A stretch of 64,000 bases of DNA, taken from IMG/VR virus record IMGVR_UViG_3300044568_000868, positions 120 to 64,119 of that record. One strand, 5' to 3'. The translations under genes were made by a program, and so were the position numbers. This document shows, in pieces, positions 2,083 through 13,374 of the stretch. Source of the DNA: a virus (lineage: Duplodnaviria > Caudoviricetes). The notes under the pieces were generated by a model. It did not search any database. It was not told the origin of the DNA and was given only the letters and a program-made list of their open reading frames with translations. Position 1 is the stretch's first letter, and the number at the start of each line of letters is the position of its first letter.

Positions 2083-3006
2083 TTATCTACGATAGGTAGG
2101 GGTACCTTTTGGCATAGGTTTTTCATGCGGATAAGCCTCGCCATGAGCCAATCCCATGTTAATTATATCCATAAACTCTTTATTTTTAGGTTGCTTAGCT
2201 GCTTCCATCTGTTTTTGTAAGTGTTTAGCATATTGTGCGCCAGATGTTTTAGCCCAATTTTTACCTGTACCGTTCCATAACTCACCAAAGGGTTTTTTTA
2301 GTCGTTTAGCAAGCTCATACTTACCTTCCATCTGTGCTAAAAACTCTGCATTAGAAAAATTAACTCCATGCTCTATTAACTCATTTACCCTAGCTGCTTG
2401 TTTTTTACTATTACGGTCTGAAAACCCACCTCCCATACCTGCACTGCCTTCTTGTAATACAAGACCACCTAACTCTTCGGGGGTTAACTGGGGTACCCCT
2501 AAATGCTGTGCAGCCCTCATAGCTCTCGCTCTAGCATAAAGCATAGAGTATCCTAAATAAGGGTCCGTTTTTTTATTTGTTTGCCCCCAGCCCCCACTAG
2601 CCCCTCCTCCACCATGGGCTGGGTTTTCAACTTTGCCTCGCATAGGTAGTGTTTCTAACCCTGTTTTAGGGTCAGTATCTTTAGGGTTCACTCCAGCTCT
2701 ATAGGCTGGTACTCTCATTTTATCTGTACCAATGGGGTCTGTTTCATTTAACCAGTATTCTTTAGGTATAGTTTCTGGGGCAAAACCCTGCATATGGTAC
2801 GGCAAGTCTGTTTGTTGTTTCCTATACAAAGATTCTTCCGCTAGGCGTCTATCTTGTTCAATAGATTTTGTTTTTAATTCAGCATTTGTAGGTATACCAA
2901 TTATACCTCTAACAGCATCTAACCCTTTTTCCCCATAATCTTCTATACTTTTTTTTGATGGAATTGCTGCTAATATCCCACGGGCCATATTTAAAGGTAT
3001 TGGCAT
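2083..3006 (-). CDS. Hypothetical protein, possible C-terminal lysozyme-like fold
   Basis: 307-aa ORF, AGGAGG RBS; LVLQEG...WNGTG...YA loosely like a transglycosylase E...YNG pattern. Confidence 0.6.
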   Translation of the reverse strand: MPIPLNMARGILAAIPSKKSIEDYGEKGLDAVRGIIGIPTNAELKTKSIEQDRRLAEESLYRKQQTDLPYHMQGFAPETIPKEYWLNETDPIGTDKMRVPAYRAGVNPKDTDPKTGLETLPMRGKVENPAHGGGGASGGWGQTNKKTDPYLGYSMLYARARAMRAAQHLGVPQLTPEELGGLVLQEGSAGMGGGFSDRNSKKQAARVNELIEHGVNFSNAEFLAQMEGKYELAKRLKKPFGELWNGTGKNWAKTSGAQYAKHLQKQMEAAKQPKNKEFMDIINMGLAHGEAYPHEKPMPKGTPTYRR

Positions 3007-3029
3007 GTTCCCTCCTTGATAAATTATAT

Positions 3030-3052
3030 AAAAAGGCCCACCGAGGTGAGCC
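3030..3052 (-). terminator. Rho-independent terminator after major capsid gene
   Basis: GGCTCAC-CTCG-GTGGGCC then TTTTT on minus strand. Confidence 0.75.
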
Positions 3053-3085
3053 CTAATTTTACTCTAAGTTATTAAAATCAATAAC

Positions 3086-4000
3086 TTAGGCAGAGCCAGC
3101 CGAACCAAAAACACCCAATGGATCACTAAAACCGAACGAGTACCGTTCACGGGCCTTGTACCTAGAGTTGCCCGTGTCGAAATCACTGTCCATTGATGTA
3201 GCTAATGGAGTTCTAACGAAATGTTTCAGACCGTTTGGAACGTCAGTCAATAAGAACCAAGCATTTGTATCAGTCAACCATGGGTTAACAGTATAGCCGC
3301 CGGGAATTGAACCGTTGTTCTTAAGAGCGTTAACATCATTGTCAGTTGTACCAACACGCAATTCAGTTTCTAACAAACGAGTTGCTACGAATTGTAATGC
3401 AGGAGGTAGAACCAATTTTTTAGGTTTAGCAGCAATCAATAAACCACGTTCGTCAGTCCACAAGGCAATTTGAATAACCGCATTTTCCAATGAAGTTTCG
3501 TTCAAATCAGCTGGTGTAGCTGGTACGTTAGAAATTGTTGAGCCATAAACTAAAGGATGTGCACTGTTACATAAAGATTTGCCGTCACCACCAGTATAGT
3601 TGGAGTTGAATGCATTGTTTAGTACAGCAGCGCCTTTAACTTCTTTGGTGTACGCCATAGCGCGAGCCAATGCTTTTGTATAACGAGCAGACAATGAGTC
3701 ATACAAGTTATCTTCAATAGCTTCTTCAGTTAAAGAAAAGCCCAGAGCGATAGTTTCGTGGGTGTAGCGAGTAGACCAAGCTTCTTGCGCATTGTCATAC
3801 GTAATACCTGAGCCTTCGTTTTTAACCGCAGCGGCACCAAAGCCAGACAGTTTTTGTTCTTCTTCGAAAGAACGATCAGATGATTCAGTTTCGAAGATTT
3901 CTTTATACTTCTCACCATAACGATCATATTCTAAACCGAACAGAGCGTTAAGACCGGGAAGTAGTTCTTTTAGTAGTTGCGCGCGTGAAATAGCAGCCAT
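3086..4000 (-). CDS. Major capsid protein (Mu gpT-like family)
   Basis: AISRAQLLKELLPGLNALFG start, C-terminal YKARERYSFG.SDPLG; AGGAG RBS; followed by terminator. Confidence 0.9.
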   Translation of the reverse strand: MAAISRAQLLKELLPGLNALFGLEYDRYGEKYKEIFETESSDRSFEEEQKLSGFGAAAVKNEGSGITYDNAQEAWSTRYTHETIALGFSLTEEAIEDNLYDSLSARYTKALARAMAYTKEVKGAAVLNNAFNSNYTGGDGKSLCNSAHPLVYGSTISNVPATPADLNETSLENAVIQIALWTDERGLLIAAKPKKLVLPPALQFVATRLLETELRVGTTDNDVNALKNNGSIPGGYTVNPWLTDTNAWFLLTDVPNGLKHFVRTPLATSMDSDFDTGNSRYKARERYSFGFSDPLGVFGSAGSA

Positions 4001-7929: not shown

Positions 7930-10419
7930 TTAACCCATAGGTGGTTGTGGAGGTGGTGCAGGTGCTGGCGCTCCTTGTGGTGGTGGAGGCGCTGCAGGTG
8001 CTCCTTGTGGCCCTGCTTGTGGCATTGGTGGAACCTCGGCTTGTCTTTGAGCTTCTATTTGTTGAGTCGCCATATCTAACCCTTTAAATAACCCTTGAAC
8101 CTTAGCGTCTTCACCTTGAAGCATTAATTTAGCCTCATTGTTTAGCATCGCTATTTCTTTACTAGCGTCAATCTTCTTAAGCTCGATCTCTTTTTTGTTA
8201 TTGATCTCTTGCTCTTTAAGTTGTAACTCTTTCTGCTGCATCTGTACTACAGGGTCTTGAGCTTGCTGTTGAGCCGTTTGTTGGGCTTGTTCAGCTTGGT
8301 TCGCTTGTAGTAGTTGTTTAGCTGCATCAGCAGATAGTTTTGCCAGTTGTACTGCCATTTCAGGGCTTAACTCTGCATCTTCTGGAGGTAATGTAGTCCC
8401 TAATTGAGTCTCTATACCTCTACGGTATTGGAAGCCCACATGCTCCATTATATGTGCCATTAACGCCTGTTTTATGACAGAAGCTTGAGGGTTTTGCCCC
8501 ATTGCTGCCGCTATCTTAGGGTCAGTTAGCATACTGTTATGCACTGTTAAGTGCGCATCGTGATCTTGTTCTATGAACGCTTTGACAGGTTTAGCTTTAA
8601 GAATGTCCATATTCTCTGTTACAGGATCAGTTGGCTTTTGATCTTCTTCCACAATAACGATCTTATCCGCATCTTTAATACCCATAACTTCAAGCATTTG
8701 TCGATGTAGTACAGGTAAGTTGTATATTTGTGGAGATTGTTGAGCTAACTGAATAGCTGCTTGGTACTGAATGATCCTTTGTGCCATAGTACTAGCGTTC
8801 GGATCAGAGACTGGAATAATATCAACTTTATCATAGTCTTCTTTCTTAGCAGATGGTTCTGCATCAAACTCTGGCATGTAGTCATATGCAGGGGCAGTAT
8901 AGTCTCTTACCAACGCTGCAATTAACTTAAACTCTTGCTCCATCGAGTAGTGAACACGAGCCTGAACAGCTGACATCACCTTTAGAGTTCTTTCCAAAAT
9001 AGCCAGTGTAGTACCTACTGGCGCCTCTCCATTCATATTATCCAGCTTAACATCAGCAACTGCTGCTAATCTACGGCCTTCTTCTACTACATTCTGTAAT
9101 AGTGTGAATAGTGTTTGGCTTGGTTCTTTATAAGGGAGCGGTAAGATATTATCTTTAATATTAGAAGATGGTACATCTACGTCTCGCCATTCACCCGGCA
9201 TGATCGGAGTATCATCACCTTTAATCCTAAGACCTCTAGATTTTAAGCCTCCGGGTAGGTTACTTAGTGTACCTGCATCAATTAACTGTCTGACAATAGA
9301 AGTTGCAGATTTAGCAAACCCACCAATAAGATGTATAAGACCGTAGCCATAAGCACCGAAACCGGGGATATAAGTATATTGTACAAAATGTTGCTTAGCT
9401 TGTTTAAGAGGGTCATGTTCATCCCAGTTACGTCTAATGGATAAAATCTCTTGTGTGCCTTGTTCAATGGTCACAACATATGGCAGGGCTATGCCTGTCT
9501 CTTCACCTGAGTCATCATCAACATCTTCAAACCCAACAAGGTCTAACTCAACCTGCATCTCTAATAGTCTGTATCTATTGTCGTATGTGGCTTTATACCC
9601 CTCAGCTTCGTCTTTGCGCTTCTGAATATCGTCAAGGTCTTTTGTTGGTTCACCAAGGTCTATATCACGATAGAACTCCGCATACTGTAGCTTCTTAACA
9701 TCATTCTTGGTTTTACGCATGACATGAGTCAGTCGCTCTGAAGTACGTGCATCAGAGGCTCCATAGGGGATATACAGATCTTCCGCAGGTACAAACATAC
9801 TTACCTGACGGTTTAGTGAGGGGTCAAAATATACTTTCTTAAACGCGGCTCCTGCCAATGCTAAGGACCACAACATCTTTTCGTGTTCAGGTCTAAACTC
9901 AGTCATTTTTTCCGTAAGCTGGTAGTTCATGTCTTCTACAACACGTTCCGCAGACTTCTGGGTATCAGGGTCATCTTTACCGATTATTCGGGCTTTTACA
10001 GGTCCCTGAGCAGGAAATGTTTCAGAGATCATCTCAGACTGAAAGCGGATAGCCGCTTCTGTTAGCATGGGGTGGTATACACCACAAGCGCCTTGCCAAG
10101 GTTCTGAACGCTCTTCAATTTTTAAACCTAACAAATCTAAGCCGTCTATATAGGTAGACTCCCACTCTTTACGAGCGTTCTTGTCATTGTTAAAGTCATC
10201 CATCAAATCAGCTACTAACGAGGCCATATCCGCCTCATCCATGTACTCCGCGAGGTTCGCATCAAACCCCGGCTCTTGCTCCATCTCTACATCAACTTCA
10301 GTCTCAACAGGATCCATAGGATCCCCTATATTAACCTCTATTGGTGCTTCATCATCTTCTGTTAAAAAGGGACTCTGCGGTTGCATTGCCTTAAATATGT
10401 TGTTTGGGACTTCAGCCAT
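7930..10419 (-). CDS. Portal protein
   Basis: 829 aa directly after TerL; FKKVYFD, GFGAYGYGL, RQLIDAGTLSNLP; Q/P-rich tail. Confidence 0.85.
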   Translation of the reverse strand: MAEVPNNIFKAMQPQSPFLTEDDEAPIEVNIGDPMDPVETEVDVEMEQEPGFDANLAEYMDEADMASLVADLMDDFNNDKNARKEWESTYIDGLDLLGLKIEERSEPWQGACGVYHPMLTEAAIRFQSEMISETFPAQGPVKARIIGKDDPDTQKSAERVVEDMNYQLTEKMTEFRPEHEKMLWSLALAGAAFKKVYFDPSLNRQVSMFVPAEDLYIPYGASDARTSERLTHVMRKTKNDVKKLQYAEFYRDIDLGEPTKDLDDIQKRKDEAEGYKATYDNRYRLLEMQVELDLVGFEDVDDDSGEETGIALPYVVTIEQGTQEILSIRRNWDEHDPLKQAKQHFVQYTYIPGFGAYGYGLIHLIGGFAKSATSIVRQLIDAGTLSNLPGGLKSRGLRIKGDDTPIMPGEWRDVDVPSSNIKDNILPLPYKEPSQTLFTLLQNVVEEGRRLAAVADVKLDNMNGEAPVGTTLAILERTLKVMSAVQARVHYSMEQEFKLIAALVRDYTAPAYDYMPEFDAEPSAKKEDYDKVDIIPVSDPNASTMAQRIIQYQAAIQLAQQSPQIYNLPVLHRQMLEVMGIKDADKIVIVEEDQKPTDPVTENMDILKAKPVKAFIEQDHDAHLTVHNSMLTDPKIAAAMGQNPQASVIKQALMAHIMEHVGFQYRRGIETQLGTTLPPEDAELSPEMAVQLAKLSADAAKQLLQANQAEQAQQTAQQQAQDPVVQMQQKELQLKEQEINNKKEIELKKIDASKEIAMLNNEAKLMLQGEDAKVQGLFKGLDMATQQIEAQRQAEVPPMPQAGPQGAPAAPPPPQGAPAPAPPPQPPMG

Positions 10420-10445: not shown

Positions 10446-12869
10446 TTAGTAGTAGTTAGCACGTTTCTTATACATCCAGCTATCTTCATCAATATCCTTA
10501 TCTTTAGCAGATCCAATAAAGCCCCCAGACCTAAACCTAGCAAGAGCTAAAGTTACAGCATCCACAAAGTCATCATTCCTACCTGCTGGAAACGAGGCAA
10601 TCTCATTAATTACTTCATCAGCCCATCGAGTAAGAGGAGCCCATACTTTACCAGAAGCAAAAATATCAGCCACCGCATTAAGTCTTGATATCTTATCTTG
10701 TCCGCGTGAAGGTGTAAACTCTTGTACAGGTATGCCCATACGTCTTAACTCGTATATTAGCGGAGCTCCTGATGCTTTCTTCTCAACAATAACCCCGTCA
10801 GGCTCCCACTCTTGATAAAACTCTAAAGTCCGTTGCTTTAAATCAGGGAACTCTAAGCGTTCTCTCCATGCCTCTAAAAGTATTAAATTTGGTTGATCTC
10901 CGTCTTCAGGATTGTTCCAAACACCAAATATCACAATGGCACTATAGTCAGCACTGGTCTTTTTCTCAAACGCCGTATCCATTGACATCAACAAAAAGTC
11001 ACAATCAGGGGGATCTTTTTCCTTCCATTCTTGCCACCACTCTCTCTTGATTATGGCTGTTGCTTCTGATGTAGGTTGTTGTTGATACTGTGCTTGCCAT
11101 TTACTTGCTGGAATTTCGTTACGTACAGCTTCAAGTTCTTCAATGTTCCAAAACTCAGGCCATAGTGGCTTGCCACTGGGTAATATAGCAGGGAACTCAA
11201 CAACCTCCCATTTGTCGCCGCCATTCATAGCAGAGTGCTCTAAAATCTGTCCTGTCAGGTCTCTCATGGACCACCGAGTATTATGGCTTACAACCCCATT
11301 AGCTATAAAATTTTCCGTGCGGTCTATTTCAACATCAAAAACTTCTTCCTCGCCATCATAACTTATTTCAGCGATCAGGTCTGTTGTGAATTCGGAAATA
11401 TTCTGCAACCGCAAGAGCTGTTCTTTCTGTTTTTGCGTACCCAACAGCGAGATTGCAGTTGTTACACAGTAACGCACGGACTTTACCAGTGTCGTGGCAA
11501 TGGTCAATACATAACTTTCCATTCCAATGCGCTCTTGTATTGTGTGTTGATGGAACTTCTTTACAAATAGCGCATTTGCCGCCTTGTTCAACAACCATTT
11601 TTTGATACTCGTCAACAGTGATACCGTATCGACTTTTAATTCTTTTGGCGTAATGCTCTTCTGGGGTTGGCCTATTTCGTCCAGATGCCCAATTTGCTTT
11701 GTTATTGTGGGACTTGCACAAGTTGTTGCAATACGCGGGTTCATCGCACCCATCAGTCGCGCAAACTTTACCTTTATATTTTCCGTGATATTTAAATTCT
11801 CTGTAAGGCGCATCTGGGTGGCGCTTATGGTAGCTCTTATTTGCTTGGCACGGTCCGCATAGTCCCGCCTTTTGCTGGGATCTTGATGGTCTATCACACT
11901 CTTCGTTACTACAAGTGACATACCCGGCTTTAAGTTCTTTAGTCGTACCCATTTTCTAACCCCTTTGTCATCTACAAGAAACGGATGTCTCTCATTAGCT
12001 CGGACAATTATACCAGAGGTTGTTCTTATTTTATATACTTTATCAATACCATTTGACCGATGATTTAAAACCTTAGCCGTTGATAGCTCCCCATTGTCAT
12101 AAGTGGCTACTTCATCACCAACACATAGGTATTTAAGTTGTTTTCCAATTCCTGTACACATTAGCACAGGGGTATCCCCCGTCATGCACATAACGATAAT
12201 AATGGCTCCCCCAGGCTGTAACCGCTGTCTTGGACCTGATGAATACCAACTAAAGACCTTATCGTAAACTTCAGGGTTAAACTGAGCTATAACGGCTTCG
12301 CCTTCTGAATGAGGGTCATCAATAATGAGCAAATCAGCACCCCGCCCAGTAACGGTGCCACCAACACCAGCAGCAAAGTACTCGCCATTAAAGTTTGTAT
12401 TCCAGCGTCCCGCTGCCTTGGAATCCGTGCGGAGCTCGACTTCTGGGAATATTCGTCTGTATTCATCTGAGTTTACCAAGTTACGTACTTTACGACCAAA
12501 ACCCTCAGCTAACTCAGCAGTGTTGCTTATCTGCATTATCTTTTTCTTAGGAAACTGCCCTAAGAACCACGCGGGTAATAAATAAGACGCAAACTCAGAC
12601 TTGGTGTGCCTCGGCCCAAGATTAATAATAATTCTTTTCTTTTCACCACGAGCAACAGCTTCAAAAAGCTTCGCTATACGCCTATGGTGCGCACCACTAA
12701 TAAAGTCAGGCCACACTGAATTAACAAAGGCTATATAGTCTTTTCTGGCATGGGCTCTTTCTTTACGGGTGTTTAGTTCTTGTATAACGTCTAATAAAGC
12801 GGCTTTTTCCGCCAATGGTGCGGCACTAATAAGGGCATCAAAATCTTCTGAACTAAAGTCCTCAAACAC
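10446..12869 (-). CDS. terL: Terminase large subunit, intein-containing
   Basis: Walker A-like PRHTKS, Walker B LLIIDD, coupling motif IVM/TRW split by intein, RNase H-like SMDTA and DDFVDA. Confidence 0.95.
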   Translation of the reverse strand: MFEDFSSEDFDALISAAPLAEKAALLDVIQELNTRKERAHARKDYIAFVNSVWPDFISGAHHRRIAKLFEAVARGEKKRIIINLGPRHTKSEFASYLLPAWFLGQFPKKKIMQISNTAELAEGFGRKVRNLVNSDEYRRIFPEVELRTDSKAAGRWNTNFNGEYFAAGVGGTVTGRGADLLIIDDPHSEGEAVIAQFNPEVYDKVFSWYSSGPRQRLQPGGAIIIVMCMTGDTPVLMCTGIGKQLKYLCVGDEVATYDNGELSTAKVLNHRSNGIDKVYKIRTTSGIIVRANERHPFLVDDKGVRKWVRLKNLKPGMSLVVTKSVIDHQDPSKRRDYADRAKQIRATISATQMRLTENLNITENIKVKFARLMGAMNPRIATTCASPTITKQIGHLDEIGQPQKSITPKELKVDTVSLLTSIKKWLLNKAANALFVKKFHQHTIQERIGMESYVLTIATTLVKSVRYCVTTAISLLGTQKQKEQLLRLQNISEFTTDLIAEISYDGEEEVFDVEIDRTENFIANGVVSHNTRWSMRDLTGQILEHSAMNGGDKWEVVEFPAILPSGKPLWPEFWNIEELEAVRNEIPASKWQAQYQQQPTSEATAIIKREWWQEWKEKDPPDCDFLLMSMDTAFEKKTSADYSAIVIFGVWNNPEDGDQPNLILLEAWRERLEFPDLKQRTLEFYQEWEPDGVIVEKKASGAPLIYELRRMGIPVQEFTPSRGQDKISRLNAVADIFASGKVWAPLTRWADEVINEIASFPAGRNDDFVDAVTLALARFRSGGFIGSAKDKDIDEDSWMYKKRANYY
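11280..12188 (-). mobile_element. Intein (303 aa, TerL residues 228-530)
   Basis: Block A CMTGDTPV, block B ANERHPFL, block F VFDVEIDRTENFIANG, block G SHN followed by +1 Thr. Confidence 0.93.
11368..11952 (-). CDS. Endonuclease VII-family homing endonuclease overprinted inside the intein
   Basis: YGIT..EY..M..QGGKCAIC, IDHCHDTGKVRALLCNNCN; AAAGGGGT RBS-like element upstream of ATG; frame +2 relative to terL. Confidence 0.88.
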   Translation of the reverse strand: MGTTKELKAGYVTCSNEECDRPSRSQQKAGLCGPCQANKSYHKRHPDAPYREFKYHGKYKGKVCATDGCDEPAYCNNLCKSHNNKANWASGRNRPTPEEHYAKRIKSRYGITVDEYQKMVVEQGGKCAICKEVPSTHNTRAHWNGKLCIDHCHDTGKVRALLCNNCNLAVGYAKTERTALAVAEYFRIHNRPDR

Positions 12870-13374
12870 CTACTACCGTCCCTTCAATAACCTTTTCGTC
12901 TGATTTATTGAGATATCTTTGCATTGCTTGGCGTAGGGTCTTCTCTAACTCGTCACTTGTTTTATGGGTAATGCTAAGTTCTGTTTTCTCCACCATGAGG
13001 CCCACGGTGCTGGTTTTAGCTAGAGTGTCTAACGCAGATTTACTTATTTTTGGATCGGGATCATTAGCTTGTTGTACTAATTTAGTCAGAACGAAGTTCT
13101 GCCATTGTCCCTGCGTTGTAGGCAAGTCAAAGTTGTATTGCCCGAAGTGCTTTTTTAAATATTTTTCAGCTGCAAGTGATGGGGCACTTGTTAATTTTAC
13201 GCCTTCTTGTGCGGTTTTCTCCGCCCATTTTTTATCCTCTTCTGTTGGAAGCAAAGGTAAGTCGGCAGGGTGATTCAGTTCTTGAAATTTTAGATCCGCA
13301 AAAACGTCTTGTGCGTTAACACTAGGTACCCCTAGAGGGATTTCAAAGTCATCTGTAGTTTTATTTTTTGTCAT
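12862..13374 (-). CDS. Putative terminase small subunit
   Basis: Immediately upstream of and overlapping terL; size and helical character fit; assignment positional. Confidence 0.6.
   Translation of the reverse strand: MTKNKTTDDFEIPLGVPSVNAQDVFADLKFQELNHPADLPLLPTEEDKKWAEKTAQEGVKLTSAPSLAAEKYLKKHFGQYNFDLPTTQGQWQNFVLTKLVQQANDPDPKISKSALDTLAKTSTVGLMVEKTELSITHKTSDELEKTLRQAMQRYLNKSDEKVIEGTVVGV

Follow-up and report, generated by a model that had tools for sequence, protein, structure and literature searches.

Inteins are usually taught as single polypeptides that contain an in-frame homing nuclease. Related arrangements have been described. A preprint by Gosselin, Arsenault, and Gogarten (bioRxiv 10.1101/2025.01.02.630785) reports, in the accessible part of its text, an overprinted nuclease in the inteins of Gordonia phages Angelicage, Affeca, Keitabear, and Sedona; the nuclease open reading frame (ORF) lies within the intein endonuclease region, on the same strand, in "frame 3 relative to the intein." The same text proposes that inteins have been invaded by free-standing nuclease genes, discusses a "splicing first" origin of inteins, and cites a Synechocystis dnaX intein with a LAGLIDADG nuclease on the antisense strand; a cyanobacterial dnaX intein is also the subject of bioRxiv 10.64898/2026.09.14.751524, as far as its accessible text goes. 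An out-of-frame, "hidden" HNH ORF is described in the available sections of a study of ShiLan, where a phage DNA methylase carries it within an insertion (Arsenault et al. 2025, PMC11855218), and fractured genes, in the available sections of another, pair a split intein with a homing endonuclease gene that stands free between its two parts (Dassa et al. 2009, PMC2677866). In the sections available of a survey of mycobacteriophage inteins (Kelley et al. 2016, PMC5050341), endonuclease VII is not mentioned and "reading frame" arises only for ORF finding. Here we describe an intein with an overprinted nuclease gene in the large terminase gene (terL) of the virus record IMGVR_UViG_3300044568_000868, which is rated 99% complete. 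The 64,000-nucleotide (nt) stretch of that record that we analyzed is referred to as the window.

The terL frame of the window runs without a stop codon through an intein, and the same strand of the intein holds a second, complete ORF, in another frame, for an endonuclease VII-type nuclease. We consider it very probable that this locus is a two-gene mobile intein, in which the Hint domain would be spliced out, the nuclease would be translated separately from the overprinted frame, and the filler peptide between the Hint lobes would need only to lack stop codons. A two-protein mobile element of this kind, with a separate nuclease frame and a terL frame purged of stops, had been proposed in a sequence-only reading of the window. 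The proposal is well supported by the frame offset and stop-free terL frames of relatives, the codon-position signal, the start and Shine-Dalgarno (SD)-like signals, the predicted disorder of the filler, the existence of empty alleles, and horizontal transfer. All window coordinates below are on the minus strand of the window. The features are as follows (aa, amino acids; pLDDT, predicted local distance difference test score).

10446 to 12869, minus strand: terL (large terminase) precursor, 807 codons (807 aa) plus stop, a single frame unbroken across the intein (from the ORF list, Pfam, and tblastn to annotated terminase large subunits)
12189 to 12869, minus strand: N-extein, 227 codons, with Walker A (GPRHTKS) and Walker B (LLIIDDPH), terminating in ..GGAIIIVM; T7 maturase B aligns weakly, from Walker A to Walker B
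11280 to 12188, minus strand: intein, 303 codons, terL residues 228 to 530, from C1 (CMTGDTP..) to ..NGVVSHN, followed by the +1 Thr (TRW)
11898 to 12188, minus strand: Hint N-lobe, intein aa 1 to 97, predicted beta-rich fold (AlphaFold2), pLDDT >90, with wobble diversity at terL codon position 3
11400 to 11897, minus strand: filler, that is, nuclease DNA as read in the terL frame, intein aa 98 to 263, 166 residues, predicted to be disordered (pLDDT <50) and unconserved as protein
11280 to 11399, minus strand: Hint C-lobe, intein aa 264 to 303, blocks F and G, ending in ..EVFDVEIDRTENFIANGVVSHN; pLDDT about 95
11368 to 11952, minus strand: overprinted nuclease gene, 194 codons plus TGA, in the +2 (= -1) frame relative to terL, with two Cys-rich N-terminal units and an endonuclease VII (beta-beta-alpha-Me/HNH) domain
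11959 to 11966, minus strand: SD-like AAAGGGGT, 7 to 14 nt upstream of the nuclease ATG, overlying the Hint Lys-Gly-Val codons
10446 to 11279, minus strand: C-extein, 277 codons plus stop, starting TRWSMRD, with an RNaseH-like terminase nuclease domain

Profile scans found the Hint family in one frame and Endonuclease_7 in the other. The terL frame matched Terminase_6C (E value, 1.6e-07) and Intein_splicing (PF14890; E value, 3.2e-14; 53.4 bits against a cutoff of 35.8, and 56.3 bits in the scan of its own genome), and no nuclease family in Pfam matched it. The nested ORF matched Endonuclease_7 (PF02945; E value, 1.5e-20; 73.3 bits against a cutoff of 23.6) over profile positions 2 to 80 of 82. 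The nuclease ATG, at 11952..11950, lies within the terL codons GAC AAA GGG GTT AGA AAA TGG and takes its A from the end of a Lys codon and its TG from the start of the Hint Trp codon. A TAG at 11958..11956 shuts the nuclease frame two codons ahead of the ATG, and the nuclease TGA, at 11370..11368, is 88 nt ahead of the end of the intein. The anatomy given by the sequence-only reading thus stands. It had placed an intein (C1...HN/T+1) between IVM and TRW, the putative coupling motif of TerL, and the coordinates, the splice residues, and the Intein_splicing match agree on this. It had found the in-frame middle of the intein free of LAGLIDADG and HNH motifs, and had recognized, on the same strand in the +2 frame, a complete 194-aa endonuclease VII-type ORF with the motifs CAIC, IDHCH, and LLCNNCN, all of which are present. 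The RBS-like (ribosome-binding-site-like) sequence, the ATG within Hint codons, and the separate TGA inside the intein can be read directly at the positions above.

This element is a homologue of the one described in actinophages, because the nuclease matches, the insertion site, the Hint blocks, and the frame all agree. By tblastn, the window nuclease matched, best first, Angelicage (54%, aa 48 to 189), then Affeca, Sedona, Keitabear, Phlyer (48%), Pipefish, and AlanGrant (35%). A four-way alignment of terL from the window, Angelicage, Phlyer, and AlanGrant gave a common insertion site (..[VI][MQ]/CMTGDTPVL ... NG[VL]VSHN/TRW), homologous Hint blocks, and an equal frame offset. The belief that the arrangement was undescribed therefore has to be given up, since the accessible text of the preprint describes it (bioRxiv 10.1101/2025.01.02.630785). 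The architecture is not new. Its breadth is new: the published actinophage cases are extended to freshwater phages and to 17 intact copies in genomes labeled as many bacterial phyla, with conserved translation signals. Gene callers annotate terL alone, and the nuclease was overlooked in the three isolate phage records examined (L082, Gordonia phage Angelicage; L083 and L084, Mycobacterium phages Phlyer and AlanGrant). Only terL is annotated there, with an additional "intein" mat_peptide in Phlyer, and the unannotated overprinted frames of Angelicage, Phlyer, and AlanGrant hold 178, 183, and 209 open codons, respectively.

The dual-coding layout is conserved. With the nuclease as query, IMG/VR yielded 115 relatives, and 80 loci were retained; 77 of these include both intein ends, and among the 77 there are 65 distinct intein sequences. 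The nuclease frame is offset by 2 relative to terL in all 80 kept loci. The terL frame is stop-free over 296 to 341 codons in 77/77 loci with both intein ends, while the third frame has 13 to 48 stops. The homologous terL inteins of this IMG/VR set, which might have shown the nuclease in frame or the terL frame closed, thus have the window's layout throughout. The nuclease ORF is intact (184 to 236 aa) in each of the 78 loci that include its start. A species-representative genome collection contained 53 further relatives of the nuclease. Eighteen of them are nested in a terL intein, 17 intact and with the same offset and site; the other 35 look free-standing, since they have no Hint or terL flank.

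Open frames of this length are not expected by chance. The probability of 194 stop-free codons in random sequence is (61/64)^194, or about 9e-5, close to the earlier estimate of about 1e-4, and the third frame over the same 194 codons has 23 stops. When the nuclease of locus L001, which is identical to that of the window, was resampled synonymously, the terL frame was stop-free in 1 of 2,000 draws. Over the 65 distinct loci, resampling gave a mean of 4.0 expected terL-frame stops and a median probability of none of 0.0065; none was observed in 65/65. Among the internal ATG codons of the nuclease, 0 of 168 precede a codon starting with A, a combination that would force a TGA in the terL frame.

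We judged selection on the two frames by the mean pairwise diversity at each codon position in the 65 distinct intein sequences (positions 1/2/3).

Hint N-lobe, terL frame: 0.26/0.23/0.51
Hint C-lobe, terL frame: 0.15/0.10/0.56
Overlap, terL frame: 0.24/0.53/0.33
Overlap, nuclease frame: 0.32/0.24/0.53

In the overlap, the wobble pattern sits in the nuclease frame; hence, it is the nuclease that is conserved as a protein there, and the terL-frame filler is not. For example, in locus L008 the nuclease is 62% identical to that of the window, and the terL-frame filler is only 33% identical.

The signals for translation of the nuclease are also held in place. Intein nt 236 is the position of the first start codon in 63 of the 65 distinct loci, and of the two exceptions, L039 likewise has an ATG there; the starts are ATG in 56 loci and GTG in 9. 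A 4-mer of the GGAG/GGGG type lies 6 to 16 nt upstream of the start in 64/65 loci. In the 17 intact genome-collection copies, the start is at intein nt 236 (15 copies) or nt 239 (2 copies). Internal initiation on the terL mRNA would be the most economical reading of these signals. An RNA hairpin occluding the ribosome-binding site was considered and set aside as unusable: RNAalifold gave a weak structure (-4.2 kcal/mol) in which 1 of 10 pairs was compensatory and the rest varied little.

Conservation of the intein was scored in an alignment of 45 sequences (A1), which was also the input for AlphaFold2. C1, H68, D285, H302, and N303 are invariant in the 45 intein sequences, and the +1 Thr (TRW) is found at every junction printed. 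In the resulting model, the Hint lobes (aa 1 to 97 and 264 to 303) have a pLDDT of >90, and the intervening 166 residues have a pLDDT of <50. The confident Hint model and the presence of the element in terL of near-complete phage genomes together argue for protein splicing. A search of PDB sequences with the TerL of an empty allele had just two matches, T7 maturase B and a further terminase, both limited to the span from Walker A to Walker B, and gave no placement of the insertion site on a solved motif III.

The nuclease has the core of the endonuclease VII family. C127, C130, D150, H151, H153, C163, C166, and N167 are invariant among the 47 relatives in the conservation alignment, and the groups C127/C130, D150/H151/H153, and C163/C166/N167 align to kCliC, DHDH, and CNlCN, respectively, of T4 endonuclease VII (1e7d), whose four Cys we take to be zinc ligands and whose Asp-His..His..Asn we take to be catalytic. 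A profile search of PDB sequences aligned the core motif for motif with Hpy99I (1e-4) and T4 endonuclease VII (3e-4). The nuclease model has a pLDDT of 78 overall and about 90 in the catalytic half, and its top Foldseek matches were 1e7l, 3fc3, 2qnf, and 1en7 (probability, 0.99 to 1.00; E value, 4e-3 to 3e-2; TM [template modeling] score, 0.24 to 0.31 over 66 to 95 columns). Modeled as a homodimer, the nuclease scored 0.71 versus 0.00 for the best control, with at least 98% contact agreement between runs and a partner pLDDT of 75. In calibration, 20 of 30 proteins with solved pair structures and 1 of 23 with solved single-chain structures reached that mark. The score indicates likeness rather than proof and may reflect memorization by the predictor, because the T4 endonuclease VII dimer is already solved. 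On this model, the nuclease probably acts as a free homodimer.

The sequence-only reading had also described two N-terminal Zn-finger-like units. Both Cys clusters (C14/C19/C32/C35 and C64/C69/C79) are present and invariant in the 47 sequences; however, no Pfam family matches either cluster, so "Zn finger" is at best a putative label. Unit number seems to differ between relatives: three Cys-rich units lie at the N terminus of the L040 nuclease (2857-3564; 236 aa) and two at that of the window nuclease, and alignments with the Gordonia and Phlyer-type nucleases cover the window protein only from residues 48 to 57 onward, past its first unit. The variable number of units suggests modular DNA-binding repeats.

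The element is polymorphic for presence and absence. A search with the C-extein gave 79 loci, comprising 70 empty alleles, 6 with intein and nuclease, 1 with an intein end at the contig edge, and 2 that were cut off. The empty alleles read ..IVM/TRW.. with a junction gap of 0 to 3 nt, so that the intein is precisely absent. In ten of them, the exteins are 99.1 to 100% identical to those of the window, and the terL DNA is 95 to 98.6% identical to the spliced form. In one RNA-library sample, contigs of the empty form and of a roughly 91%-identical intein occur together. The genome that contains the window has one PF02945 match, and none was found in three intein-less sibling records (0/3; two of them 92% and 100% complete). 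Because the intein-less siblings have no such match, the phage can do without the nuclease, which moves together with the intein.

The element has also moved horizontally. In L002 to L004, the nucleases are 85 to 97% identical to that of the window, and the terL exteins are only 62 to 67% identical; the 97%-identical nuclease resides in terL genes that are only 63 to 66% identical. In L047, the exteins are 83 to 96% identical to those of the window, and the nuclease is only 55% identical. Locus L001 has the window's genotype, and its grouping with L002 to L005 by intein rests on identities. The extein data reject a clade of L001 with L002 to L005 (P value of the approximately unbiased test [p-AU], 2.3e-7). 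In a 94-row extein tree (49 with the element and 45 without), presence or absence changes at least 12 times. The combination of empty alleles with near-identical exteins and similar nucleases in divergent terL genes points to active homing.

Sequences next to the insertion site differ between alleles. The first two C-extein codons of the window (11274-11279) are ACT CGG, versus ACC CGA (or ACC AGA) in all 13 nearest empty alleles, differing at third bases; ACT at the first codon is common to the window and the L002 to L007 group. The third-base differences are weakly suggestive of, or at least compatible with, a very short co-conversion tract. In L001, the next ~20 nt differ from those of the window (TCT CAA CGA GAT CTT) and are partly like the L002 group, and the differences between L001 and the window may be co-conversion tracts of different lengths.

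In the mechanism that we propose, terL mRNA would be translated across the full 303-codon insert. The Hint lobes (intein aa 1 to 97 and 264 to 303) would fold together and excise the insert to give active terminase, and the 166 residues between the lobes would be an unstructured by-product, the sole requirement on which would be the lack of a stop codon. With the reading shifted back by one base, this DNA would form a distinct gene that starts at an ATG behind a ribosome-binding site of its own, and its product would be an endonuclease VII-type (HNH-like) nuclease of roughly 22 kDa with Cys-rich DNA-binding units. In a mixed infection, the nuclease would cut intein-less terL at or near the ..GTTATG/ACC CGA.. 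junction, which codes for the conserved ..IVM/TRW.., and repair from the intein-bearing genome would copy the entire element in (homing).

Several points weigh against this mechanism or soften the evidence for it. We infer splicing, independent translation of the 194-aa product, cleavage specificity, and dimerization. In block B of the intein, H68 is invariant, yet the motif in the window is N-E-R-H, in which Asn takes the place of the Thr of many inteins (TxxH). The best Foldseek match, T4 endonuclease VII, has a probability of 1.00 but an E value of 4e-3, above the tool's line of 1e-3. Since the start and SD-like signals overlie conserved Gly and Trp codons, their conservation may partly belong to the Hint frame. 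A promoter and terminator scan gave nothing beyond shuffled sequence, with 5 promoter-like sites (6.2 expected) and none ahead of the nuclease start. Contigs of the region also occur in the RNA-library runs X15 and X16; contigs of this kind show no transcription, strand, or ends, and the uncovered parts of the stretch in X16 are uninformative. In the resampling analysis, ORF ends ran beyond the true stop in about 9 loci, which slightly altered those simulations, and the extein tree is a biased sample, half of which was chosen for having the nuclease.

With one metagenomic contig, the natural first suspicion is an artifact in which two compensating indels displaced an ordinary in-frame HNH-type intein domain, as the sequence-only reading had itself cautioned. 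We found no support for it. The stretch or part of it is present in 20 public runs from 17 studies; 14 runs, each labeled as a lake or freshwater metagenome, contain at least half of the sampled words, and the source sample may account for two of them. An independent contig (X5) that covers 11000 to 12500 has 6 substitutions and 0 gaps, and two contigs from X3 are identical to the window, with 0 differences. Because these contigs are gap-free and the offset is conserved (80/80 IMG/VR loci, 17/17 intact genome-collection loci, and the isolate phages Angelicage, Phlyer, and AlanGrant), two compensating indels are excluded, and with the start codon at the identical nucleotide in 63/65 loci we regard an artifact as exceedingly improbable. 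In X15 (RNA library, ~91%-identical intein), a 1-nt deletion and a 1-nt insertion lie 4 nt apart at window positions 11653 to 11657; they compensate each other and change 1 or 2 codons in both frames. The nuclease ORF could alternatively be an inactive relic in an intein that is only vertically inherited, with the frames open by chance or through terL constraint alone. Decay does exist in the family, in a prophage-like locus with stops and frameshifts (L180) and in one with a truncated nuclease and an open terL frame (L178). However, the nuclease frame bears the wobble signature of purifying selection, all 47 aligned sequences keep the catalytic and Zn-ligand residues, 78/78 viral loci have an intact ORF, and the intein and extein histories conflict, all of which makes a relic highly improbable.

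Equally slight is the chance that the nuclease is made by programmed ribosomal frameshifting, either as a fusion of the TerL N-terminal part, Hint N-lobe, and nuclease or, by a double shift, within an in-frame intein. A single mRNA carries both frames, which overlap at an offset of -1, and there is no evident internal promoter, as frameshifting would have it. Nevertheless, the TAG of the window shuts the nuclease frame two codons before the ATG, an ATG or GTG start with an SD-like motif is kept at a fixed position, and no canonical slippery heptamer was seen in the first overlap codons (by eye; no systematic scan was made). We know of no precedent for a double ribosomal frameshift of this kind. 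T4 endonuclease VII acts in packaging, and HNH proteins serve as terminase partners. The nuclease might thus serve the phage itself while housed in terL, either as an HNH terminase partner or as a T4 gp49-like resolvase that removes branched DNA so that packaging can proceed. Its membership in the endonuclease VII family and its location in a packaging gene would fit such a role. It is nonetheless improbable, if less so than a relic or frameshifting: nuclease and intein are co-present or co-absent, siblings with 99 to 100% identical exteins have neither, two near-complete sibling genomes lack any PF02945 match, the element moves between terL genes that are only 62 to 67% identical, and the nuclease has extra Cys-rich N-terminal units outside the part that aligns to T4 endonuclease VII.

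The overprinted layout is widely distributed. The nearest cultured relatives of the window's terL exteins are terminases of the Pelagibacter phage HTVC027P type and of cyanophages (45 to 54%), with gammaproteobacterial phages also among the nearest; by its terminase, the phage is not an actinophage. The restriction to actinobacteriophages reflects the reach of the published survey and does not define the architecture. A blastn search of terL against cultured phages gave only two short matches (68 to 71%). The contigs with nested copies in the genome collection are labeled Caulobacteraceae, Saccharimonadales, Chloroflexota, Geobacteraceae, Microbacteriaceae, Anaerolineae, Oleiphilaceae, Oribacterium, Dysosmobacter, Bradyrhizobium, Mycolicibacterium, Vulcanimicrobiota, Opitutaceae, Sulfuritalea, Clostridiaceae, and unclassified "uncultured bacterium," with the proviso that metagenome-assembled-genome labels of phage-like contigs can err. 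The terL site, the -1 frame, and the start at intein nt 236 are retained across genomes labeled as Proteobacteria, Firmicutes, Actinobacteria, Chloroflexota, and CPR (candidate phyla radiation). We tentatively suggest, at a little under even chances, that the overprinted layout is one ancient, stable design rather than a short-lived accident. A plausible reason why selection would keep the nuclease out of frame is that an endonuclease VII-type enzyme must be a free homodimer and would be unable to function as an in-frame loop of Hint, so that fusion through indels would be selected against.

Variants occur within the family. L180 (1679-3200), on a 911-kb contig labeled Alphaproteobacteria, has a stop in the Hint N-lobe and frameshifts between the terL parts and is a decayed copy; its apparent offset of 0 was rejected as an in-frame variant because of this decay. 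In L178, the terL frame is open and the nuclease ORF is shortened to about 115 codons. Some related terL genes have a second intein, either inside Walker A (GPRH/A...THN/TKSE), as in L006 (1325-2332) and L014, or just past Walker B (DDPH/A...THN/SEQE), as in L067 (809-1771) and L069. These second inteins start with Ala, not Cys, and have in-frame LAGLIDADG-type motifs (LGxWLGDG and LLxGLxDxDG), so a single terL gene can carry a canonical in-frame intein beside the overprinted one.

An 829-aa ORF immediately downstream of terL in the window (7930-10419) has a C-terminal tail of low complexity, rich in Ala, Pro, and Gln, and, from its position and size only, probably encodes the portal protein. 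A 170-aa ORF upstream (12862-13374), with an 8-nt overlap with the terL start, may encode the small terminase. A scan of the window turned up no tRNA genes.

As a family, these elements are a stable alternative to the usual layout of inteins, with the splicing part and the nuclease as two proteins from one DNA stretch. They are a clean natural example of overprinting, because the constraints on the two frames differ: one must encode a working enzyme and the other must only lack stop codons. One phage species is found with and without the element in nature, which makes homing directly testable. As for origin, a free-standing nuclease gene may have invaded a mini-intein, as the sequence-only reading had proposed. 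The family is also relevant to the "splicing first" idea of how inteins arose, which is taken up in the accessible text of bioRxiv 10.1101/2025.01.02.630785.

The window nuclease and T4 endonuclease VII (gp49; 1en7, 1e7d, 1e7l, and 2qnf) have a common catalytic core (CxxC, DH-H, and CNxCN), and a homodimer is predicted for the window nuclease. T4 gp49 is a structure-specific junction resolvase used by the phage itself. In contrast, the window nuclease has about 100 additional N-terminal residues with Cys clusters and travels with an intein.

Like the window, dnaX-type inteins, as presented in the accessible text of bioRxiv 10.1101/2025.01.02.630785, have intein and nuclease as separate products that share DNA; they differ in nuclease family, host gene, and strand or frame relation. 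Fractured genes resemble the window in having a separately translated nuclease gene between the N and C splicing parts. However, in the available sections of PMC2677866 the host gene is in two ORFs and splicing is in trans, whereas terL of the window is one 807-codon ORF; because the terL frame runs on stop-free (77/77 loci), splicing here would be in cis. ShiLan, too, has a homing-type HNH ORF overprinted on an insertion that is stop-free in the frame of the host gene, with a distribution that indicates homing. Its insertion has no detectable splicing domain or ribosome-binding site according to the available sections of PMC11855218, whereas in the window a canonical Hint flanks the nuclease and an SD-like motif precedes its start.

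The actinophage elements are the closest of these systems. The terms "start codon," "ribosome binding," "synonymous," and "metagenom" do not occur in the main text of bioRxiv 10.1101/2025.01.02.630785, the supplementary tables of which may list more hosts. The "frame 3 relative to the intein" of that text is the same as the +2 offset of the window, and in both cases the nuclease is of the same family and lies between the splicing blocks. The window element differs from the actinophage elements in coming from an uncultured freshwater phage and in having a second Cys-rich unit at the N terminus of its nuclease.

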